This document shows, piece by piece, positions 12,250-29,587 of a stretch of 42,960 nucleotides of DNA. Source of the DNA: Escherichia phage vB_EcoP_P64441; sequence record PQ847473.1. One strand, given 5' to 3'. Position numbers and translations under genes: made by a program. The notes beneath the pieces were generated by a model. That model was given only the letters and a program-made list of their open reading frames with translations. It was not told the DNA's origin and searched no databases. Each line of letters begins with the position of its first letter. The first letter of the stretch is position 1.

Positions 12250-14700
12250 CTAACAGAAAAAGAATCTGCTACCCAGTACCTGCTTAAGGTCCAAAGAACC
12301 TTTAGCTGGTAACTCCAGCCCTTCTAAGTCTGCCCCACAAGCTACTGCCGCATCAGTAATCTCCTGAAGTACGTCATGCTCTGTGTACAGACGTAGGAAC
12401 TGTTCGCGGATAGCAGAATGCATTTCATCTACATCGCAAGCGTGAGTAGCTACCGAGTCGTGGATAGGCATAATGTCTCCTGAGAATGCAGAGATAGTCA
12501 TACCTAAGTGAGTAGCGTCTAAGCTGTGCACCCAATTAGGGGAGATGCCTGACTTAGCCTTACGCTTGTTGTTTACATTGTAGTTACGGTTGTACACCAG
12601 CAGGTGTGTCAGGTTCATGCTCTTAACAGAAACCTTAGTCTCTTCTGATTCAGTGTATCGGTTGATAACCAGCCCGCCTAACGGAGTCTTCCATTGAAGG
12701 TGGTTGGCTGCTGGTACACGATAGCACAGTGACTGTACATATTTCATCGCCTCAGTAGCTGCTGGGTTAGCGTCCTCTACTGCTGCCTTCATGCGAGTAC
12801 TCAGATATCCTGCCAGCTTGAACAGGCTGTACTCTTCCGTCCCTTCGTAACCTTCTTCCTGTGCAGACTGAAGGATGTACTCTGAGCAAGAGCGCACAGT
12901 AGCCGAGTATACGTGTGTCATGCATGGACGTTTAGCCATGCTGCGGGTAATCTCGTTCCCACGCCAGTAGTTAGCCTGCACTACGAAGTCAGGATTGTCC
13001 AGGTCCATGATGACCTTAGCATCAGTACGGCGCTTAACGTCCATGTACATATCTGCTTTCTCTTCGTTACCCTCCCAGAACAGGTTAACTAAACGACCAC
13101 CTACTGAGTCACGCAGTAACGCGGCGAAGTGCTGCTGCCCCGAGTTGGTTGCATCCATAGCCACCGGAATGCGTGATTCGTATGTTTCCGGGCTGCCCGA
13201 GTCAATAGCAGCAACGAGGTCGATGCAGGCTGCCAGAAAACACCACGGGCTGTCTGCACTCCTGAAAGCTTCTGCATTAAACGGATTTGATGCGACAAGT
13301 CGAATCTGCTCGATATTAGCATCAGTCCAAGCTGCACGCTTTTCGAATAAGGCTTTATCATAACCATAGCAGGTAGCGACGTGTACCTTGAGCCAAAACA
13401 AACCCCGCTCTCCCAGAGGCTTTGCCCGACTGAAGGAGAGCAAAGCTTTCTGCATGTCAGGACCCTGAGGGTGCAGGCTTGATTTGAAGTACAGGCGGTA
13501 GCGCCAGTCAACGCAGGTTGGGAAGTACAGTTCTTTCTCATCCTTAAACTCCTCGCAGAGTTGAACCAGTGTCACCATGGAACGCAACTTACTTACGCGA
13601 GTACGCTCTTGGATGTACCAGTTACGCATATTCATCTTCCAAGTCTGGAAGTCATCCATCTGGCGCTCGGTGTAATCCTCTTTAGGTACACCGTCCAGAT
13701 ACCACTCAGGTTTAGGGGCTGGGTAGGAACTAGGCATACCTGTCGTTACACCTTCACGACGTGCTTGGTTAAGCAGATTAAGTACTTCCTTGTTGATAAC
13801 GTAAGGCACTTCCTGCGCCTTGTTCAGCATATCCTTCAGTCCCTCTGCCTGCTTGAATGCCTCTGCTACTTCACGTTTCATTGCACGAGTAATCTGGTGA
13901 TTATGGTAAGTACCGCGCTTGCAAGTGCTGCTTAGAAGGTATCCACCTGAGAACATGTCTACATGCTTCTGCGGAGGTACAATCATTGGGGGTTTAATCT
14001 CTACGGTATCTGCGTCCAGTACTAAATCGCCTAGTACCTCAGCTAATACTTCAGACGGTGCCAAGTATTGTAGCTGGGTTGCGTCAGTGCTCTTATCCCA
14101 CGTGAACAGGCCTGTTTCCCACACAGGTTGTAGGATTAATTTACCTACTGCTACACACTGAGAAGCGGACCAAGGTTCATGCCCGTAGTGCACATTCTCT
14201 GCTGAAGCACGTAAGGTCTTCATAATATGCGACTGACTTGTAGTGTTACGTTCTTTCAAGTACTCAAATACACGATTCATATATGCGGGTGCAACTACTT
14301 CTAACTGTATGCTAAGGACCTCGGCTTGAACCTGGCGCCCTAGGCTAGCCAGCAAAGCTTGTGCAGATGTACGGCTTCCACCAGACTCTTTAAGGAAGAG
14401 GGAGTCAATGCATTTAGTGAGTGCCATTACAGCGAGAACGTCAGTAGGGACCAGACGGATAATGCTGCGGTACTTACCGCCGACGCCTGCGGTCTTCTGT
14501 GCCTTCATCTCGTCAATGCCTTGAGCAACAGTATCATAGGCTGCTGCAATCATGCGACTTACCTTAGGCAGGCTGCTTAAGTTACCTGCTGCCAGTGCCT
14601 TCTGCACCAGCTCACGCGACTTGTTCAGGCTACGAGTGCGGTAATCTTTCTCTAGCTGTAACTGGCGTTCTACTTTCTGTTCTAATGTTTCGTGTTGCAT
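12250..14700 (-). CDS. T7-like single-subunit DNA-dependent RNA polymerase
   Basis: 816 aa. 'MDATNSGQQHFAALLRDSVGGRLVNL' matches the T7 RNAP motif A region '[25 protein letters not shown]'. 'IHDSVATHA' matches motif C (HDSFG). The C-terminus 'LGSRFFFC' parallels T7 'ESDFAFA'. Confidence 0.9.
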   Translation of the reverse strand: MQHETLEQKVERQLQLEKDYRTRSLNKSRELVQKALAAGNLSSLPKVSRMIAAAYDTVAQGIDEMKAQKTAGVGGKYRSIIRLVPTDVLAVMALTKCIDSLFLKESGGSRTSAQALLASLGRQVQAEVLSIQLEVVAPAYMNRVFEYLKERNTTSQSHIMKTLRASAENVHYGHEPWSASQCVAVGKLILQPVWETGLFTWDKSTDATQLQYLAPSEVLAEVLGDLVLDADTVEIKPPMIVPPQKHVDMFSGGYLLSSTCKRGTYHNHQITRAMKREVAEAFKQAEGLKDMLNKAQEVPYVINKEVLNLLNQARREGVTTGMPSSYPAPKPEWYLDGVPKEDYTERQMDDFQTWKMNMRNWYIQERTRVSKLRSMVTLVQLCEEFKDEKELYFPTCVDWRYRLYFKSSLHPQGPDMQKALLSFSRAKPLGERGLFWLKVHVATCYGYDKALFEKRAAWTDANIEQIRLVASNPFNAEAFRSADSPWCFLAACIDLVAAIDSGSPETYESRIPVAMDATNSGQQHFAALLRDSVGGRLVNLFWEGNEEKADMYMDVKRRTDAKVIMDLDNPDFVVQANYWRGNEITRSMAKRPCMTHVYSATVRSCSEYILQSAQEEGYEGTEEYSLFKLAGYLSTRMKAAVEDANPAATEAMKYVQSLCYRVPAANHLQWKTPLGGLVINRYTESEETKVSVKSMNLTHLLVYNRNYNVNNKRKAKSGISPNWVHSLDATHLGMTISAFSGDIMPIHDSVATHACDVDEMHSAIREQFLRLYTEHDVLQEITDAAVACGADLEGLELPAKGSLDLKQVLGSRFFFC

Positions 14701-14739
14701 TTGATTCCCTCTAGCTAATCGTGGCTGTATGTGAGGTTA

Positions 14740-15504
14740 TTACTGGTTTGCTAGGAACACTGCCTTAGCAAACCCTCTTGGAGTTAATGAGCGAATTACT
14801 TTAGTCTTAACAGATTTACCGCCCAGTTTACTATGTTGGGCGCTGTACCCTGCTTCCACTTCTACAGGTTTAACTTCAGGTATATTAAAACCATTACCTA
14901 CCCATAAGCACGTCTTCTTAGGATAAGCGTCCCGTGGCTTTATATAGTCTGGGAACTCAGGATGACTGTCGTCAGTATCCAAATAGCCGCCATACTGGTA
15001 TGGGTGAAAGGAGTAGTCCGGCTTACGCCACTTACTACTCAGTACACTTACTGGATTCTCAATCATGTAAGGTACAGCGTACTTATCCCCTAAGATAGCA
15101 GCTAGCTTAGCCGTAGCTACTGCCTTGTTCTGTACCTCTGGGTCTTTAGCTATCTTAGCTGCAAAGTGCGCGGCGCCGCTTACTGCTAAGTCAGTACATG
15201 GAGGGAATGCGAGTATTAAATCAGGCGTCTCTTCAAAATCAAATGAACTATCTAACCACACGTTAACGTATGTAATATTAAGGTGCTTAACCTTAATACC
15301 ACTATAAGGCCCGTGGTCGGCATCGTCAGAGTTAAAGCAGTAGCACTTGTAACCGGCCTCAGCGAAGGGAAGAACAGCATACCCTGAACCGTCAAATAAA
15401 GACCATACAACTTTACCCATAATTACCTCACTTGGACTCGCGTCCCTTCCAAATCTGATAAAGCTCTTCGTAATCCTTAGCTGCTGCCGTGTCTCCACGC
15501 TCAA
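14740..15504 (-). CDS. Putative SAM-dependent DNA (cytosine-5) methyltransferase-like protein
   Basis: 'SLFDGSGYA' resembles C5-methyltransferase motif I (FxGxG), 'FPPCTDLAVSG' motif IV (PC), and 'YMIENPVSV' motif VI (ENV). Only 254 aa, so a full target-recognition domain is doubtful. Confidence 0.4.
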   Translation of the reverse strand: MSVETRQQLRITKSFIRFGRDASPSEVIMGKVVWSLFDGSGYAVLPFAEAGYKCYCFNSDDADHGPYSGIKVKHLNITYVNVWLDSSFDFEETPDLILAFPPCTDLAVSGAAHFAAKIAKDPEVQNKAVATAKLAAILGDKYAVPYMIENPVSVLSSKWRKPDYSFHPYQYGGYLDTDDSHPEFPDYIKPRDAYPKKTCLWVGNGFNIPEVKPVEVEAGYSAQHSKLGGKSVKTKVIRSLTPRGFAKAVFLANQ

Positions 15505-15543
15505 CAGCCTCTGACCACTTCTGCATTGCCCACTCTGAATTAC

Positions 15544-15735
15544 TCAATGTAATACTTCCCCTGTAGACTCTGTACCTTCCATTAGGTAGAAGTCGTAATC
15601 ATGCTCTACTATGCCAGCTTGCTGCCCAGCCCAGAACAGGTCCTGCATGAACTGCTCTGCATAGTCTAAGTCAGTACTGTCAATCTCAATTACTGCAATA
15701 ATCTTGTTTGGTTTATGCATTCTCAAGTACCTCAA
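15544..15735 (-). CDS. Hypothetical small acidic protein
   Basis: 63-aa ORF. No motif. Confidence 0.3.
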   Translation of the reverse strand: MRYLRMHKPNKIIAVIEIDSTDLDYAEQFMQDLFWAGQQAGIVEHDYDFYLMEGTESTGEVLH

Positions 15736-16759: not shown

Positions 16760-17619
16760 TTCTGGAGGTCGCCCTCCAGTAGGGGGTGTATATAACTGAA
16801 TGCCGAGTCATCTGGACTGCGACGAAGGAACAAGCATTCCATCTCAGCTAGGAAGTTCTGGTTAATCTCTGCGTAGGCCGCGACTACTTTGTTAGCCGCT
16901 CCCTTCTCCGTACTGCAATCCTCTAGGAACTCATACGCACCAGCTGGGCCTATGTTCTTTCCCTTGTACTTAGTAAGTCCAGCAACGTGGTCAGCAGCGT
17001 CACCCATTAGCATCTGGGCGAACATGAAAGCTAAACCATGACCGACTACCTTACCTCTGGATTTATCGTACTCAATCCAGCCGTAAGCATCATCAATCGC
17101 ATCTACAGTACCTAGCTCAGGGTTCCACTTAGGACCTCGGCAGAGGTTCATATCCTTATCGAAGCTGCTTACTAAGCCACGCTCACCAAACAGGATACTA
17201 TCGGTAATGATAAGGTCATCGGCCTCCTGCTGGTAGTCGAAGATAATCTCAATCCCTTGCTGAGCATACTCATTCGGGTTAGCTATGAGGTGTGCCTTAA
17301 GCGGCGCCTTCAGCGGTATCTCTGCTCTAGTTGCACGCTGACCTTGGTAAGGCTTGACGGTAGGCAGGAGGAACCTGCCGCACTTAAAGTTATCAGAAGG
17401 AGTAATGTAGGCGCGTACTTCCTTAGCGTTCGTGTAGAACTTATCTTCCAGAACCAGTTGATAGAAGCGCCGGATAGCTGTATCTAAGCGCTTCACTGTA
17501 CTGGCTGCCTTGTACACTGCTTGGTCTGCATCAAGCAGCAGCACAGTATCTGAAGGAGCAGGCGTCTCTAACTGAGCGCCTAACTCATCTAAGTTAATGC
17601 CTTTAAAGTTAATCAGCAT
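16693..17619 (-). CDS. 5'-3' exonuclease (T7 gp6-like, FEN/PIN fold)
   Basis: Acidic clusters 'LLLDADQAVYKA', 'DDLIITDSIL', 'SFDKDMN' and 'GDAADHVAGL' parallel T7 gp6 'SCDKDFKTIP' and 'GDITDGYSGIAGWG'. Confidence 0.65.
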   Translation of the reverse strand: MLINFKGINLDELGAQLETPAPSDTVLLLDADQAVYKAASTVKRLDTAIRRFYQLVLEDKFYTNAKEVRAYITPSDNFKCGRFLLPTVKPYQGQRATRAEIPLKAPLKAHLIANPNEYAQQGIEIIFDYQQEADDLIITDSILFGERGLVSSFDKDMNLCRGPKWNPELGTVDAIDDAYGWIEYDKSRGKVVGHGLAFMFAQMLMGDAADHVAGLTKYKGKNIGPAGAYEFLEDCSTEKGAANKVVAAYAEINQNFLAEMECLFLRRSPDDSAFSYIHPLLEGDLQKWAEALHQYNEEYKAWRLSTQQ

Positions 17620-18130
17620 ACTTTAATCTCCAGTGACTTAGGCAGTAGTCATATTCCCTTAATGCAGCCATACGACAGGCTACTGCCTCTAATAGCTCCG
17701 GATAGACCCCCAAGTGCTTACGAGACCCTTCTACATTTATATACACCTGCCACTTGCATAGCCTAGACACCCAGGTTACACCTGCAATTCCAGATTTATT
17801 ATTACGCTGAATACTTCTGTTCCGCTGGTTCTCTGCACATGTGACTAACCTAAGATTTTCAATTCTGTTATTAAGAACATCCCTGTCCACATGAGCTACT
17901 TCTAGGTTAAAAGGAATAGCGCCGTTATGCAGTTCCCATACAATCCTGTGAACATACCAATTGGTACCCTTCAGTGCTACAGATAACCTACCCTCAGAAC
18001 CGCTGGGCGTACCTGCTTCAGTGCCAACTTTTATCCGTCGAGCAGCAGCTACCTTCCACAGTAACTGCCCGTCCTCATATTGGAAGTAATCTTCCCAAGC
18101 TATACCGTAGTCGCTAGCTGCCTTCTTCAT
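17609..18130 (-). CDS. HNH homing endonuclease with AP2-like DNA-binding domain
   Basis: 'YVHRIVWELHNG...EVAHVDRDVLNNRIENLRLVTCAENQRN' is an HNH motif, followed by 'GIAGVTWVSRLCKWQVYI...KHLGVY', which looks like an AP2 domain. Confidence 0.7.
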   Translation of the reverse strand: MKKAASDYGIAWEDYFQYEDGQLLWKVAAARRIKVGTEAGTPSGSEGRLSVALKGTNWYVHRIVWELHNGAIPFNLEVAHVDRDVLNNRIENLRLVTCAENQRNRSIQRNNKSGIAGVTWVSRLCKWQVYINVEGSRKHLGVYPELLEAVACRMAALREYDYCLSHWRLKYAD

Positions 18131-18518: not shown

Positions 18519-19319
18519 TTAAAGTGCAGGAGGAACAACAGCGAATGTAGGTGCGGCTGGAGCTACTGGAGCTACTGGAGCAGCAGGTGCAGCAGGTGCA
18601 GCAGGTGCAGCAGGTGCAGATACTGAAGCAGGTGCAGCCATAGCCGCCATGTCAGGAACATCGCCCATTAGCATCTGCTGAAGAGCCGAGCCTTCGAAGT
18701 TAACAGCGCTTAAAATATCTTCTTGCAGAAAATTGTTCTTCTCAATATGCAGAGAATCCCAAGTTTCTTTAGTCGGGTTATCAAACAGGAACAGACGAAG
18801 ACCTGATTCGTCCAATGCTGGCAGCTCTACCGGAGCGCCAGTCTGCGGGTCAAACTTAGGTAGAGTACGCAGACTCAGGAAGTCGATGGTGTTAGAAGTC
18901 TTACCAGCCTTACTGGTGTACTGCTCAACCTCAAACATGAACGCTTGGCCTAGACGTTGTGCCATGTGCTTCAGCGTGCCGTCATAGTTCATCTTGTCGA
19001 AGACTTGTTTAAACTTAGCTTTCTCGAAGCTGCTAATGGCCATTGGGAACGGATTAATACGCTTGATAGAACCATCAGGGGTGTAAACGATGAAGCCTAA
19101 GCGCACGTTCATTACTGCTGGCTTGCCAGTCGGCTTACCCATGTGCATAGGAATCTTTTTACCTAACTCGATGTACTCCATGAAGCGACCAAAGTAAGTA
19201 CCACGCGGAAGCAGTACATCAGCGAAGTTACCGCCAGCCTGTGTTACTGACTGGTCGATGCCCTGAGTAGCTACGGTTTCGTTAACGAGGGAAGACAGTG
19301 CGTTCAGATTGATAGTCAT
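18519..19319 (-). CDS. Hypothetical protein with C-terminal (Pro-Ala-Ala)n low-complexity tail
   Basis: 266-aa ORF. The C-terminus 'APAAPAAPAAPAAPVAPVAPAAP' is encoded by a 9-bp tandem repeat (gcaggtgca)n at about 18556-18625. Confidence 0.45.
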   Translation of the reverse strand: MTINLNALSSLVNETVATQGIDQSVTQAGGNFADVLLPRGTYFGRFMEYIELGKKIPMHMGKPTGKPAVMNVRLGFIVYTPDGSIKRINPFPMAISSFEKAKFKQVFDKMNYDGTLKHMAQRLGQAFMFEVEQYTSKAGKTSNTIDFLSLRTLPKFDPQTGAPVELPALDESGLRLFLFDNPTKETWDSLHIEKNNFLQEDILSAVNFEGSALQQMLMGDVPDMAAMAAPASVSAPAAPAAPAAPAAPVAPVAPAAPTFAVVPPAL

Positions 19320-20489: not shown

Positions 20490-21071
20490 TTATTCGCTTA
20501 CATTAACCCAATCAGGACGCTCACCCTTACCGCAGTAAAAGTCAATCAGGTCTAGTAAGCGTGGATAATACTTCAGCGAACTCTTACCGTCCATTTCCGC
20601 AACCTGGCGCTTACTGAAGCTGCGCCACTCTGCTGCCGTATGCTGCTGACATCCTACACGCACTATGTCATTACAGATACTAATGAAGTACGTTTCTCCG
20701 TATATAATGACAGTCTTGGCGCCGCGCAGGTCAGCGCGGCGCAGGTTAGCGCTGCGCAGGTCAGCTTCGCGCAGGTCAGCGTCGCGCAGGTCAGTGCCGG
20801 TCAGGTCAGCGCCGCGCAGGTCAGCGCCGCGCAGGTCAACGTCGCGCAGGTCAGCGCCGCTCAGGTCAGCGCCGCGCAGGTCAGTGCCGGTCAGGTCAGC
20901 GCCGCGCAGGTTAGCGTAGCGCAGGTTAGCGCCGCGCAGGTCAACGTCGCGCAGGTTAGCACTGCTCAGGTCAGCGTCGCGCAGGTCAGCGTCGCGCAGG
21001 TTAGCGCGGCGCAGGTCAACGCTGTGCAGTCTTCCTAACTTATACTTTTCGCAGATTTCTTGATAGTTCAT
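20490..21071 (-). CDS. Pentapeptide-repeat protein 2 (about 22 A(D/N)LxG/R-type repeats plus a roughly 75-aa non-repeat C-terminal domain)
   Basis: '[56 protein letters not shown]...' is a continuous pentapeptide repeat as in Qnr/MfpA DNA mimics. Encoded by a 15-bp tandem DNA repeat. The N-terminus is paralogous to 27205..27741. Confidence 0.8.
20718..21030. repeat. 15-bp tandem repeat array (coding; pentapeptide repeats)
   Basis: Units such as 'gcgcaggtcagcgcc' / 'gcgcaggttagcgcc' repeated about 20 times. Confidence 0.9.
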
Positions 21072-21619: not shown

Positions 21620-22807
21620 TTAAATTACCATCTCCCCTTTAAAGGACTTACCAATCTCACATTCAGCGGGAAACTTAACTTCAGACAGTATGCCAAAGTT
21701 AGGCCACAGCTGTAGCATCCTATCACGGGCTCCTTCCATAACGTTTTTGATGAGCTTACCCGCCTTACGGGCCGTCTCTTCGTCAGCACAATCTATGTAC
21801 AAACAGTCATGGACGGTAACCAGCAAACACCATTTACCCCCCATCCAATTGTCAGCTATACCAGCCCTCATAGCCATTCCGGTTGCAATAAGCATAAGCA
21901 GGGAACCTGATCCTTGAAACGGATAGTTAGCCATCTCTGTGGGCTTAAAGTCCATTACCTGCTTACCTTCGCGCCACACCGGCTTCTGACGGAAGCGGTA
22001 GCGAGTACCGCAAGGCGTAGTGAAGTAGCCCTCGCGATAGATACGCCAGCTGCCGTCATCTGCTTGTTCACGGCGTATAGGCTCCAGCAGCGCAGTACGG
22101 TTTACTTCAGCTGCAATGACATCCCTGTACTTAATAGACTCAGGGAATAGTGCCTCCTCGTTAGCTAAGAACTTCTCAGCGTCGGCTAAGCTAGCACCTG
22201 AGGCGAACGCCAGTCCTTTAGCGGATGCTCCATATTGTGCTGCGAAGCTGAAGGTTTTGATGGCTGTTCGCTTCTTCTTCCATCCTTTATGGTCCGGTGC
22301 ATCCAGGTTATGGCAAAGCTCGTAGACTTCTTCATAAGGCATACCTTCTTGGAATGCTAGACGATAGCAGTGCATATCCGTACCGGCTTCAAGCAAGCTC
22401 AGTAATTTCTTATCACCAGTGATTACACAGCCCATTACAACCTCCATAGCTGAGTAGTCACACTGTGCAATCATACCCTGCTCACCATAGCGGCTACGCA
22501 GAATCTGCTTAACCTTAGACTCACGCGGCAGCTGCTGCATGTTCGGGTTAGATGTTGACAGGCGTCCGGTAGTAGTTGAGCAGTGATTCGACCTGTGGTG
22601 AATGATGCCAGAACCATCTGCTGATGTAGGGATGACGTACGGCAGCATGCCCGTCACCTTACGCAGACTGCCATCCTTATTAGTCTCACGTACTTCATAG
22701 AAGCCGAGGTCCTTCTGGCGTGTAGTCATTTCTTTGTATGTTTTGAAGAAGTCTGAAGCTAACTTAGCCATCTTGTTCCATCCCAATAAAATAATGTGCA
22801 AGGTCAT
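21620..22807 (-). CDS. DNA polymerase (family A), polymerase-domain ORF
   Basis: 'GRLSTSNPNMQQLP' (pre-motif A), 'CDYSAMEVV' (motif A, DYSxxE), 'RTAIKTFSFAAQYGAS' (motif B), 'VTVHDCLYID' (motif C, HD). Overlaps the upstream exonuclease-domain ORF by 44 nt in the +1 frame. Confidence 0.8.
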   Translation of the reverse strand: MTLHIILLGWNKMAKLASDFFKTYKEMTTRQKDLGFYEVRETNKDGSLRKVTGMLPYVIPTSADGSGIIHHRSNHCSTTTGRLSTSNPNMQQLPRESKVKQILRSRYGEQGMIAQCDYSAMEVVMGCVITGDKKLLSLLEAGTDMHCYRLAFQEGMPYEEVYELCHNLDAPDHKGWKKKRTAIKTFSFAAQYGASAKGLAFASGASLADAEKFLANEEALFPESIKYRDVIAAEVNRTALLEPIRREQADDGSWRIYREGYFTTPCGTRYRFRQKPVWREGKQVMDFKPTEMANYPFQGSGSLLMLIATGMAMRAGIADNWMGGKWCLLVTVHDCLYIDCADEETARKAGKLIKNVMEGARDRMLQLWPNFGILSEVKFPAECEIGKSFKGEMVI

Positions 22808-23915
22808 TCATTGCGTCCATTCCTGTGCTGTACACAGGGCTACCATCCGCTAATGTTTGAGCACCTTTGTATTCACCGCGGTCTCCGTACTTCTCACGTA
22901 GAGACTGAGGTAGGTCCTGAATATTAACCAGCCCGTCGAAGCGGTACAGGCGTTCACCCCACTTCATAGCTTGCTCGTCAGTGTCTACTTTTATGAACTT
23001 AGGCATACCCTTATTACGCCCAGACTTATACACCCCGTCCTGTACTTCCTTCTTAATGTATTTAGGTGGGTCATAAGGAACCTTGCACTTGTACTTAACC
23101 GTGCCGCCATACACTAAAGCGGACATATGATAACCGCTATTCCATTTAAACTCGAAGCCCTCTGGCAATTCTGGCAAGAATGTCTGAAGTAACTCCCGCA
23201 GATTCCGAATAGCGTCCTCCTGCTCCTTCTGATTAGCTCTGGCTGTAGGCATATCAACGTACACGCCATTGAACTCACAGTATGCCAGAGCTGCGACTGC
23301 CTCCATCCTTTCCCAGACCATAGGCATCTGTCCACGTTCCGCAAATACTGCGCATTGCCCGTAGAAGCACAGCGCTGTGTTGACTATGTCACCGTTAGGC
23401 CCTGTTAAGTATTCATGTAGTAGCATAGGGTCAATGTCTGCTGTCAGAACCCCTTGCTGCCATAGTAGCTTAACGCCGTCGACTTTGTGTGACCCGCCAT
23501 ACTTAGGGGCAGTCTCATCTAGTGACGGGTAAAGATTCTGGAAGTCGCTGGCAATGTACTCGCCCTGCATAGTATCAAAGACTCGACCTCCTCGTCTAAG
23601 GAACGACTCGAACTGCTCACGGGCAAAGGTCAGCGCCCAGCTAATCTCGTACGCTGCGTTGTGCGCTACGATTAACCACGTATCATCCTGAATAGGTAGC
23701 CACTGCTTAGGGTCAGCTGCTAAGAAATCAGTTCGGGATTCATAGCGTACACTCTGCACCTCGCTGCACTGTACAGTCCCATCCGGCATAGTCCTATCGA
23801 TGCGGAAGCCTGATTCTACGATGTAGTTATCAGGGCAGTACGGAGTTGCGACCCCGCCGTAGTACGGATGATTTTGAGTTTCAATATCCCAAATTAGAAT
23901 GCTACTCATTTCCAA
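22764..23915 (-). CDS. DNA polymerase (family A), N-terminal 3'-5' exonuclease-domain ORF
   Basis: 'LIWDIETQ' is an Exo I (DxE) motif. Contiguous with the polymerase-domain ORF. The called start at 23915 is TTG; a likely ATG start lies at 23909 (MSSILIWDIET). Confidence 0.7.
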   Translation of the reverse strand: MEMSSILIWDIETQNHPYYGGVATPYCPDNYIVESGFRIDRTMPDGTVQCSEVQSVRYESRTDFLAADPKQWLPIQDDTWLIVAHNAAYEISWALTFAREQFESFLRRGGRVFDTMQGEYIASDFQNLYPSLDETAPKYGGSHKVDGVKLLWQQGVLTADIDPMLLHEYLTGPNGDIVNTALCFYGQCAVFAERGQMPMVWERMEAVAALAYCEFNGVYVDMPTARANQKEQEDAIRNLRELLQTFLPELPEGFEFKWNSGYHMSALVYGGTVKYKCKVPYDPPKYIKKEVQDGVYKSGRNKGMPKFIKVDTDEQAMKWGERLYRFDGLVNIQDLPQSLREKYGDRGEYKGAQTLADGSPVYSTGMDAMNDLAHYFIGMEQDG

Positions 23916-27204: not shown

Positions 27205-27741
27205 TTAGATACTAACCCAATCAGCGACGCGCAGGTCAGCGTCGCGCAGGTCAGTGCCGGTCAGGTCAGCGCCGCGCAGGTCAGCGCCGCGCAGGTTAGC
27301 GCCAATCAGGTTAGCGTCGCGCAGGTTAGCGCCGCTCAGGTCAGCGCCGCGCAGGTTAGCGCCGCGCAGGTTAGCGCCGTGCAGGTCAGCGCTGCGCAGG
27401 TCAGCGCCGCTCAGGTCAGCGCCGCTCAGGTCAGCGATGTTCAGGTCAGCGTAGCGCAGGTCAGCGCCGCGCAGGTCAGCGCCGCTCAGGTCAGCGCCGC
27501 GCAGGTTAGCGCCAATCAGGTTAGCGTCGCGCAGCTTAGCGTCGCTCAGGTCAGCGACGCGCAGGTCAGCGTCGCTCAGGTCAGCGTAGCGCAGGTCAGC
27601 GCCGCTCAGGTCAGCGCCGCGCAGGTCAGCGTCGAGCAGGTTAGCGCGGCGCAGGTCAGCGCCGCACAGGTCAGCGCCGCACAGGTCAGCGCCTTCCAAG
27701 GATTCCAACTTGTATTTATTACAGATATTGTCATAAGTCAT
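27205..27741 (-). CDS. Pentapeptide-repeat protein 1 (about 30 contiguous pentapeptide repeats)
   Basis: '[44 protein letters not shown]...' runs almost to the C-terminus. Likely start is the ATG at 27741 (MTYDNICNKYKL) with a GAGG ribosome-binding site; the track ORF extends to 27792. Confidence 0.8.
   Translation of the reverse strand: MTYDNICNKYKLESLEGADLCGADLCGADLRRANLLDADLRGADLSGADLRYADLSDADLRVADLSDAKLRDANLIGANLRGADLSGADLRGADLRYADLNIADLSGADLSGADLRSADLHGANLRGANLRGADLSGANLRDANLIGANLRGADLRGADLTGTDLRDADLRVADWVSI
27225..27695. repeat. 15-bp tandem repeat array (coding; pentapeptide repeats)
   Basis: About 30 units of 'gcgcaggtcagcgcc'-type repeats. Near-identical at the DNA level to the array at 20718-21030. 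Confidence 0.9.
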
Positions 27742-27751
27742 ATTAGTAACC

Positions 27752-27991
27752 TCAGTTAATTTTAATATTAAAACGTGCACAATACCCTTCAAGGGTCATC
27801 CCTACTTTAGCTGCTTTAAGACTGTAAGCTAACTTAAGAGCTTCCTTAGCGTCATGCTCACGAGCCAGCTTCTCAATCGTTACTTCATCATTACGCATCA
27901 GAATCATTTCGGGGTTCCGGTTAATCATTTCTGCATCTCCAGTTTGAAAAGGGCCATTGCAGCGTTCAGGCGAAACGCGGGTTGCATTCAT
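27752..27991 (-). CDS. Hypothetical protein (79 aa)
   Basis: ORF only. Confidence 0.3.
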   Translation of the reverse strand: MNATRVSPERCNGPFQTGDAEMINRNPEMILMRNDEVTIEKLAREHDAKEALKLAYSLKAAKVGMTLEGYCARFNIKIN

Positions 27992-28921: not shown

Positions 28922-29587
28922 TTATTTTGAAATTCTTTCTGAAATATACACAAATCCCTTAGGAGTAAACTGCGCAGAGATGCGTGCAACCTTTAATCTG
29001 TCAAAAGTAACCTTATGCTCCCCACGTTTAGCCTTTAGCCAGCCTGCACTGAATGTCCACGTACCATTCAATTTATACATATGCTTATTCTCTACCAGCC
29101 AACTTCTTACTTCAGCTTCAGTGTAAGATAAGAACTTACACATCTCACGTAAAGTCATAAGACCTGTAGTATCTACATAGTTACCTACGAACTCAACCTT
29201 AGGCGCTGCTTCTTCTACCTTCTCTTGGAGCTTCAAGTTCTCTTCTGCGTAGTTCTGGAGAAGTCCCAGCAACTGCTTAGGGTCATGCAAGTTAATAGTA
29301 GGCTGACGTTGCTTACGCTCCAGCTCTTCCCAACGGTCAATGATACGGGCGCGCAGTTCTACATTGTAGCCAGAGATAACAAGCAATGTATCACGTTTAG
29401 TTAAATGCCACTCGCGCTGTTGCTGATTATTATATCCGGCGTAAGTTACTGATTTACTTGATTGGCTCAAAACTGAGCCAATGCTTTCAATGTCCCTAAG
29501 TACGTTCTTATGCAACTTACCAGTCAGCTCAGCAATCTCGCGGCTAGTCATGGTCTGTACATCAGTAGTAGTAGTTAAATCAAACAT
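28922..29587 (-). CDS. Rha-family phage regulatory protein-like
   Basis: N-terminal 'QTMTSREIAELTGKLHKNVLRDIESI' resembles the Rha-domain signature (MSSREIAELTGK.H..VLRDI). Confidence 0.6.
   Translation of the reverse strand: MFDLTTTTDVQTMTSREIAELTGKLHKNVLRDIESIGSVLSQSSKSVTYAGYNNQQQREWHLTKRDTLLVISGYNVELRARIIDRWEELERKQRQPTINLHDPKQLLGLLQNYAEENLKLQEKVEEAAPKVEFVGNYVDTTGLMTLREMCKFLSYTEAEVRSWLVENKHMYKLNGTWTFSAGWLKAKRGEHKVTFDRLKVARISAQFTPKGFVYISERISK

Follow-up and report, generated by a model that had tools for sequence, protein, structure and literature searches.

A probable orphan Dcm-like cytosine-C5 methyltransferase gene immediately upstream of the RNA polymerase gene in Escherichia phage vB_EcoP_P64441

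Immediately upstream of the RNA polymerase gene of Escherichia phage vB_EcoP_P64441 (sequence record PQ847473.1; 42,960 nucleotides (nt), the whole of which is referred to here as the window), the minus strand carries an open reading frame (ORF) that raises the question of which function so short a methyltransferase-like protein could have in a phage. This ORF, located at 14740..15504, is the longest one there, begins with TTG and encodes 254 amino acids (aa). A sequence-only reading of the locus had noticed motifs resembling those of C5-methyltransferases (C5-MTases), had considered its length insufficient for a classic enzyme that includes a target-recognition domain (TRD), and had proposed a self-protecting anti-restriction methylase, a nucleotide-modifying enzyme or a degenerate relic. 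On balance, the gene is probably that of an orphan, S-adenosylmethionine (SAM)-dependent DNA C5-methyltransferase that would protect the phage's own DNA, with CCWGG as its probable target.

The nearest sequenced relatives of the window belong to the subfamily Slopekvirinae of the Autographiviridae. Around the RNA polymerase gene, the Escherichia phages ECO104 4-5-2 and vB_EcoP_PAS7 (PAS7) share ~80-82% DNA identity with the window, and the Enterobacter phage phiKDA1 shares ~71%. The true coding sequence (CDS) of the methylase is 14740..15420 on the minus strand, encoding 226 aa, and not the 254-aa ORF. Its start was placed at the ATG at 15420 because a ribosome-binding site precedes this codon, because gene calls in 97%-identical metagenomic relatives begin at the same ATG (227 aa), because a conserved gene of 39 aa, read in another frame, overlaps the 84 nt of the false N-terminal extension (15421-15504), and because 15438-15715 is homologous to ECO104 4-5-2, a genome without any methylase gene. 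Additionally, aligned family members start within a few residues of this point. The 254-aa ORF described in the sequence-only reading does exist at exactly the coordinates given above, but the real protein is even shorter; the proximity to the RNA polymerase gene was correctly perceived, since the methylase gene ends 39 nt upstream of it. The gene and its translation signal are as follows:

14740..15420, minus strand: methyltransferase CDS, 226 aa, with the ATG at 15418-15420 and the TAA stop codon at 14740-14742; matches PHROG 757 with E 5e-83.
15426-15429, minus strand: ribosome-binding site GAGG of the methylase, 5 nt upstream of the ATG, overlapping the TGA stop codon (15428-15430) of the 39-aa gene.

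Counted from this ATG on the minus strand, the motifs that had drawn attention to the locus are all present, with FDGSG at residues 9-13, PPC at 73-75 and ENP at 121-123. Their conservation was evaluated in an alignment of 78 diverse family members, 34-85% identical to the window protein, which was used as the reference row. The AlphaFold2 model obtained from this alignment presented a mean predicted local distance difference test score (pLDDT) of 94.2 and a predicted template modelling score (pTM) of 0.91. Structure prediction had been suggested as a check in the sequence-only reading, and the model displays a Rossmann-like class I methyltransferase fold that is closest to C5-MTases. In Foldseek comparisons, the best structural matches were all C5-MTases; in the Protein Data Bank (PDB) these were DNMT3A/B, with E ~1e-6 and a sequence identity of 14-17%, while the matches among viral models were phage proteins named cytosine methylases. 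The motifs and conserved segments recognized in the protein are the following:

15382..15396, minus strand: motif I-like loop for SAM binding, F9-D-G-S-G13, which follows strand beta-1 (residues 4-8) immediately and lies within the alignment with PF00145.
15196..15204, minus strand: motif IV, P73-P74-C75, in which Cys75 is the predicted catalytic nucleophile; C75 is invariant (78/78) and aligns with Cys81 of M.HhaI.
15052..15060, minus strand: motif VI, E121-N122-P123 (ENP versus the canonical ENV); E121 is invariant and aligns with E119-N-V of M.HhaI.
14812..15006, minus strand: insert of ~65 aa (residues ~139-203) in the TRD position, separating the catalytic core from the C-terminal helices, with P140, Y166, W173 and P181 invariant.
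14761..14793, minus strand: C-terminal conserved block R210-S-L-T-P-R-G-F-A-K-A220, candidate equivalent of motifs IX/X.

The residues invariant throughout the alignment are C75, E121, P140, Y166, W173 and P181, and at least 90% conservation was observed for P73, T76, N122, P123, R132, K168, R210, S211, P214, G216 and A220. Between motifs VIII and IX, where classical enzymes have a large target-recognition domain, the window protein has just ~65 residues, as is the case throughout the family, and this insert (139-203) presumably takes part in target recognition. Regarding motifs VIII-X, the candidates are R132 in WRKPD and the stretch R210-S-x-T-P-R-G-F-A, neither of which was aligned by any sequence method with M.HhaI (the M.HhaI sequence used was confirmed to be identical to PDB entries). 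When the family was compared with M.HhaI by hhalign, motifs IV-VI alone were aligned, the similarity was not significant (E 0.054), and nothing useful was obtained for the C-terminal part.

The window protein matches PHROG 757, 'DNA methyltransferase', with E 5.1e-83, residues 2-226 being aligned with profile positions 14-219 of 247. It is a member of this compact phage Dcm-like family, which is a distant structural relative of the PF00145 enzymes, and it was placed there rather than in PF00145 itself because it falls below the Pfam threshold and has no large recognition domain. The family is widespread: homologues were found by tblastn in 1536 phage records, with at least 80% coverage in 1475 of them, mainly from phages of Escherichia, Klebsiella and Salmonella, but also of Campylobacter and Vibrio. 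The records sampled correspond to genomes from ~40 kb to ~165 kb, Drexlerviridae among them, in which the gene is commonly annotated as a (C-5) cytosine methylase. In a database of 5.8 billion proteins, 6310 homologues were recovered, and an exhaustive search of 50%-identity cluster representatives returned 1276 clusters. Since family members are mostly 210-260 aa long, compactness is a property of the family; the protein is indeed too short for a classic TRD-bearing enzyme, as had been remarked, which is normal for the whole family and no anomaly of the window gene. Proteins of this kind are already known, both from GenBank annotations (including that of phiKDA1 at the same locus) and from one experimentally studied member, and the window gene is a further one. 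More broadly, this very common phage family sits under the Pfam and NCBIfam thresholds, and its function in databases rests on weak similarity and on one experimental study.

Relatives of the methylase are also found in longer proteins. The BFVD entries A0A6J5SE15 and A0A6J5NPY6 contain them within proteins of 1100-1400 aa from uncultured phages, one of which is described as 'Helicase/UvrB, N-terminal', and other relatives (proteins P0221, P0242 and P0254) carry N-terminal extensions of ~180 aa without a Pfam domain. A Pfam scan of ten longer homologues (292-453 aa) in search of fusions returned no domains.

The experimentally studied member is the Dcm of the Drexlerviridae phage K42, which was reported in a preprint on retron Ec86 (Eco1). 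It was reported that all K42 escapers were mutated in or just upstream of the 711-bp dcm gene, or had deleted it, that mutants without dcm were still viable, and that expression of K42 Dcm in retron-carrying cells led to growth inhibition (10.1101/2023.08.16.553469). By liquid chromatography coupled to mass spectrometry (LC-MS), the 5-methylcytosine (5mC) level of the multicopy single-stranded DNA (msDNA) of the retron was high with wild-type K42 Dcm and not with C82A/E128A/K175A/K176A, K175/K176 being proposed as substrate-binding residues, and it was low in MG1655 with its own enzymes alone (10.1101/2023.08.16.553469). Additionally, retron defence and its triggering were abolished when either C of the CCTGG in the msDNA stem-loop was changed, Dcm was encoded by 34 of the 35 retron-sensitive phages, and Dcm over-expression was considered by the authors to be probably toxic (10.1101/2023.08.16.553469). 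A later paper restates that a phage cytosine methyltransferase activates retron Eco1.

The connection between K42 Dcm and the window protein was established through Warwickvirus JLBYU26. From an internal ATG, the gene of this phage measures exactly 711 bp and encodes C82, E128, K175 and K176 at the numbering of K42 Dcm, which indicates that both phages encode the same type of protein. The Warwickvirus Dcm (236 aa) is 56% identical to the window protein over its full length (E 2e-91), with C82 corresponding to C75, E128 to E121, and K175/K176 to K168/K169, the latter encoded at 14914-14919 (minus strand), inside the ~65-residue insert. The window protein thus shares with the Drexlerviridae Dcm proteins (K42, KarlJaspers-like; Warwickvirus JLBYU26) the family, the full-length architecture and the catalytic and proposed substrate-binding residues, and in both cases the gene is a solitary accessory phage gene. 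They differ in that the window phage belongs to the Autographiviridae, Slopekvirinae, and that its protein is 10 residues shorter than the Warwickvirus one and diverges in the variable stretches 58-66 and 183-196.

The comparison with the two 97%-identical relatives revealed 18-20 synonymous and 8 non-synonymous differences, corresponding to a ratio of non-synonymous to synonymous substitution rates (dN/dS) of 0.10-0.11. This ratio is not that of a relic, and the suggestion of a degenerate gene is also contradicted by the confident, well-folded model and by the invariance of the catalytic residues. From its sequence, its modelled structure and the analogy with its homologue, the window protein is very likely to be an active DNA C5-methyltransferase. 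The option of a nucleotide-modifying enzyme was not supported either, given the Rossmann fold of a DNA C5-MTase and the lack of partner genes: among 21 ORFs scanned against PHROGs, no SAM-lyase, Cx-SAM (carboxy-SAM)-synthase, nucleotide-modification or other DNA-modification family was found. Of the original proposals, the self-protecting methylase is thus the favoured one, as regards the enzyme on account of the C5-MTase fold, the invariant Cys and Glu, the purifying selection and the 56%-identical homologue that raises 5mC, whereas the anti-restriction role would follow from the considerations below.

As suggested by the fold and the motifs, Cys75 (PPC motif) would attack a flipped-out cytosine at C6, N3 would be protonated by Glu121 (ENP motif), and the methyl group of SAM would be transferred to C5, with the ~65-residue segment (139-203) replacing the large target-recognition domain of classical enzymes. 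Because the gene closes the DNA-metabolism block and is directly followed, on the same strand, by the RNA polymerase gene, the methylase would be produced while the phage DNA replicates. Progeny DNA could in this way carry the methyl mark by the time it is packaged and be protected from restriction when it enters the next host, the most likely target being the inner cytosine, C(5mC)WGG, and the most likely adversary being restriction of the EcoRII type, whose enzymes cut unmethylated CCWGG. A probable cost, by analogy with the homologue, would be the triggering of retron Eco1 (Ec86). Genes of this kind may affect the escape of therapeutic and model phages from EcoRII-type restriction, and may at the same time confer vulnerability to retron Eco1.

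The CCWGG content of the genomes bears on the identity of the target. The window contains 27 CCWGG sites, versus 67 ± 8 in dinucleotide-preserving shuffles (z about -5) and 96 expected under a maximal-order Markov model, a ratio of 0.28, which makes CCWGG the most depleted of the 32 NNWNN/NNSNN quasi-palindromes, the next lowest being GGWCC with 0.69. T7-like phages are known for their few CCWGG sites. The observed and expected numbers in the window and its relatives are given below:

PAS7, methylase absent: 6 observed / 86 expected, ratio 0.07.
ECO104 4-5-2, methylase absent: 28 observed / 110 expected, ratio 0.25.
Window, methylase present: 27 observed / 96 expected, ratio 0.28.
phiKDA1, methylase present: 118 observed / 141 expected, ratio 0.84.

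The lineage is evidently under selection against CCWGG. Methylase carriers tend to present less CCWGG depletion, as expected if the enzyme protects these sites, a tendency that is only suggestive, since it is drawn from four genomes with different hosts. By analogy with K42 Dcm, CCWGG is somewhat favoured as the target of the window enzyme. Other sites are scarce as well: GATC is almost absent from the window, with 4 sites versus ~136 expected (ratio 0.03), and is similarly rare in PAS7 (12), ECO104 4-5-2 (9) and phiKDA1 (4), and CCGCGG occurs once in the window versus 6 expected.

Several observations weigh against the reading as a self-protecting methylase of CCWGG. Against Pfam PF00145, the window protein scored 17.1 bits, versus a gathering cut-off of 22, with residues 6-84 aligned on profile positions 4-80, and the same profile was reached at E 0.01 or better in just 4 of the 78 family members; an NCBIfam scan gave no match, and sequence searches of the PDB, with the single protein or with the family profile, returned nothing significant (M.HaeIII, E 1.3). 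The motif I consensus of the family is SLFDxTG and not FxGxG, and the acidic position of motif II, which is Asp in at least 90% of 71 aligned members, is Asn30 in the window protein; the Warwickvirus homologue, which matches the active K42 enzyme in length and numbering, likewise presents Asn at this position. The evidence of 5mC formation pertains to the 56%-identical homologue type and not to the window protein, and the CCWGG specificity of K42 Dcm was itself assumed from E. coli Dcm, one site having been mutated, in strain MG1655 (10.1101/2023.08.16.553469). Furthermore, in the BASEL study the presence of methyltransferase genes in Drexlerviridae was not related in a simple way to resistance against restriction. 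Finally, the depletion of CCWGG is also found in the methylase-less relatives, where it is equal or stronger, and for this reason it was rejected as a proof of specificity.

An active DNA C5-MTase with a target other than CCWGG is an alternative that we consider possible but rather unlikely; given its small recognition segment, such an enzyme may read a shorter or looser motif (for instance CC, CCW or a 2-4 bp site), which would provide broad protection against many restriction systems. The nearest solved folds, DNMT3A/B, have small recognition loops, and these enzymes read only CpG; the K42 motif was never mapped, and the own enzymes of MG1655, which is a dcm+ strain, gave low msDNA 5mC. The remark that Dcm over-expression is probably toxic and the lack of a simple methylase-restriction pattern in BASEL point in the same direction. 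On the other hand, retron triggering was abolished by changing either C of the msDNA CCTGG, the CCWGG ratios fit the protection of CCWGG (0.28 and 0.84 in carriers versus 0.07 and 0.25 in genomes lacking the gene), and the putative recognition segment is highly conserved family-wide, which fits a single defined specificity. In a related and equally tentative proposal, the 226-aa family might be the smallest natural DNA C5-MTase scaffold rather than a simple copy of Dcm, reading either a shorter or looser motif or 5 bp in an unusual way, for instance by forming a DNMT3-like dimer or by preferring DNA that is single-stranded or folded into a hairpin. Such an unusual 5-bp reading would explain why the phage enzyme raised the 5mC of msDNA while the host's own left it low. 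The results presented here are unsurprising to a specialist, and their interest lies in the target motif of the family and in how DNA is read by so small an enzyme.

It is improbable that the methylation serves another function, for instance as a mark for replication, packaging or the timing of transcription, or to change host gene expression. The position of the gene directly before the RNA polymerase gene, with which it is probably co-transcribed, and the absence of a clear restriction phenotype for such genes in BASEL are consistent with a role of this type. It is contradicted by the dispensability of the gene, which is missing from PAS7 and ECO104 4-5-2 in otherwise collinear genomes, by the viability of K42 without dcm, and by the distribution of the gene, which occurs here and there in unrelated phage families in the manner of accessory counter-defence genes. 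In view of the purifying selection, the invariance of the catalytic residues and the activity of the homologue on DNA, an inactive relic or an RNA methyltransferase (DNMT2-like) is very improbable. The least probable alternative is an enzyme like CmoX of Synechococcus phage S-B43 (PDB 8yf3), a DNA cytosine C5-carboxymethyltransferase that carries Arg in place of the motif X Asn, uses Cx-SAM produced by a phage-encoded CmoA, and is encoded alongside CmoA and usually also CmoY; a transfer of such a non-methyl group onto cytosine C5, generating a hypermodified base, was rejected for the window protein, since no CmoA or CmoY candidate was found among the 21 ORFs scanned against PHROGs, nor a candidate Cx-SAM synthase among the longer ORFs of the window.

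Returning to the self-protecting methylase of probable CCWGG specificity, its resemblance to known enzymes is partial. It shares with E. coli Dcm and M.EcoRII (CCWGG, PF00145) the predicted Cys/Glu-dependent methylation of C5 and probably the target. At about double the length, these enzymes include a large target-recognition domain, whereas the window protein remains under the PF00145 gathering score, has a ~65-residue segment in the TRD position, and is without a restriction-enzyme partner in the window. The catalytic domains of DNMT3A and DNMT3B are the nearest solved folds, with a sequence identity of only 14-17%; the DNMT3 enzymes are eukaryotic, recognize CpG, and work as dimeric or tetrameric assemblies that include regulatory domains. 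M.HhaI, with 327 aa, differs from the window protein by its full target-recognition domain between motifs VIII and IX.

The organization of the locus is that of an accessory cassette. Just 24 bp separate the counterparts of window positions 14739 and 15438 in ECO104 4-5-2, so that the 698 bp at 14740-15437 represent an insertion or a deletion, and no methylase homologue was detected by tblastn in PAS7 or ECO104 4-5-2. The segment is bounded exactly by the stop codon of the 39-aa gene on one side and, on the other, by the conserved RNA polymerase leader, which reads AACCTCACATAC...GAGGG...ATG and starts exactly where the cassette ends. At the same locus, the methylase is carried by phiKDA1 (75.7% identical) and by two metagenomic relatives. 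The methylase gene is thus a mobile accessory cassette, placed precisely between the 39-aa gene and the polymerase leader, and an ambiguous short ORF is in this way converted into a correctly delimited and annotated accessory gene with a putative counter-defence role. The features of the locus are:

14740..15437, minus strand: 698-bp cassette (methylase CDS and ribosome-binding site), absent from the two closest sequenced relatives.
14701..14739, minus strand: RNA polymerase leader, 39 nt (AACCTCACATAC...AGAGGGAATCAA), defined by a three-way junction comparison and kept in methylase-less relatives.
12250..14700, minus strand: single-subunit RNA polymerase, 816 aa, annotated in PAS7 and phiKDA1; Pfam RNA_pol is found on the L007 orthologue.
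15428..15547, minus strand: conserved 39-aa gene (MSNSEWAMQKWSEAVERGD...; in full MSNSEWAMQKWSEAVERGDTAAAKDYEELYQIWKGRESK), homologous to a 123-bp CDS of PAS7 and to a 42-aa gene call of L007.

The TTG start codon of the 39-aa gene overlaps the stop codon of an upstream 63-aa ORF, and its TGA stop codon overlaps the ribosome-binding site of the methylase; where relatives lack the methylase, the RNA polymerase gene comes directly after the 39-aa gene. A scan for promoters and terminators around the methylase gene revealed nothing above chance, and the methylase is probably co-transcribed with the flanking middle genes and the RNA polymerase gene. Another mobile insertion in the DNA-metabolism block is an HNH homing-type endonuclease gene (17609-18130, minus strand; 173 aa, PHROG 99), which adjoins the exonuclease gene; phiKDA1 has one at the same place, and PAS7 and L008 are without it.

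The window corresponds to an essentially complete, circularly permuted phage genome, in which every long ORF with an assigned function is carried by the minus strand. Bases 1-127 are identical to the last 127 (42834-42960), leaving a unique genome of ~42,833 bp; this terminal identity looks like an overlap of circular assembly, 127 being a common maximum k-mer, and could possibly be a short terminal repeat. At 21620-22807 and 22764-23915 (both minus strand), two adjacent, slightly overlapping ORFs of 395 and 383 aa occupy the position at which the PAS7 annotation has a pair of successive 'DNA-directed DNA polymerase' CDSs and phiKDA1 a single polymerase gene; this two-ORF arrangement (21620-23915) may reflect a frameshift, the presence of an intein or intron, or a genuine split. 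The 266-aa protein encoded at 18519-19319 (minus strand), which belongs to PHROG 862 (function unknown), has a low-complexity Pro/Ala repeat, PAAPAAPAAPAAPVAPVAPAAP, at its C-terminal end, where the coding DNA contains 9-bp tandem repeats (18557-18638). In the early region of this otherwise lytic, T7-like genome, the 221-aa protein encoded at 28922-29587 (minus strand) matches anti-repressor Ant / Rha-type regulator families (PHROG 63, E 2.5e-46).

At 27205-27792 and 20490-21071 (both minus strand), the window encodes two paralogues that carry the pentapeptide repeat A(D/N)L(R/S)(G/D) in ~20-30 copies, and the repeats form 15-bp tandem arrays there (27221-27693 and 20719-21022, respectively). 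An N-terminal ...ICxKYKL motif is common to both proteins, the PHROG families that they match are of unknown function, and both are candidates for counter-defence, given that such repeats can mimic DNA. The equivalent of the pentapeptide-repeat protein in PAS7 is annotated as a 'modular polyketide synthase' on the opposite strand, an annotation that looks spurious.

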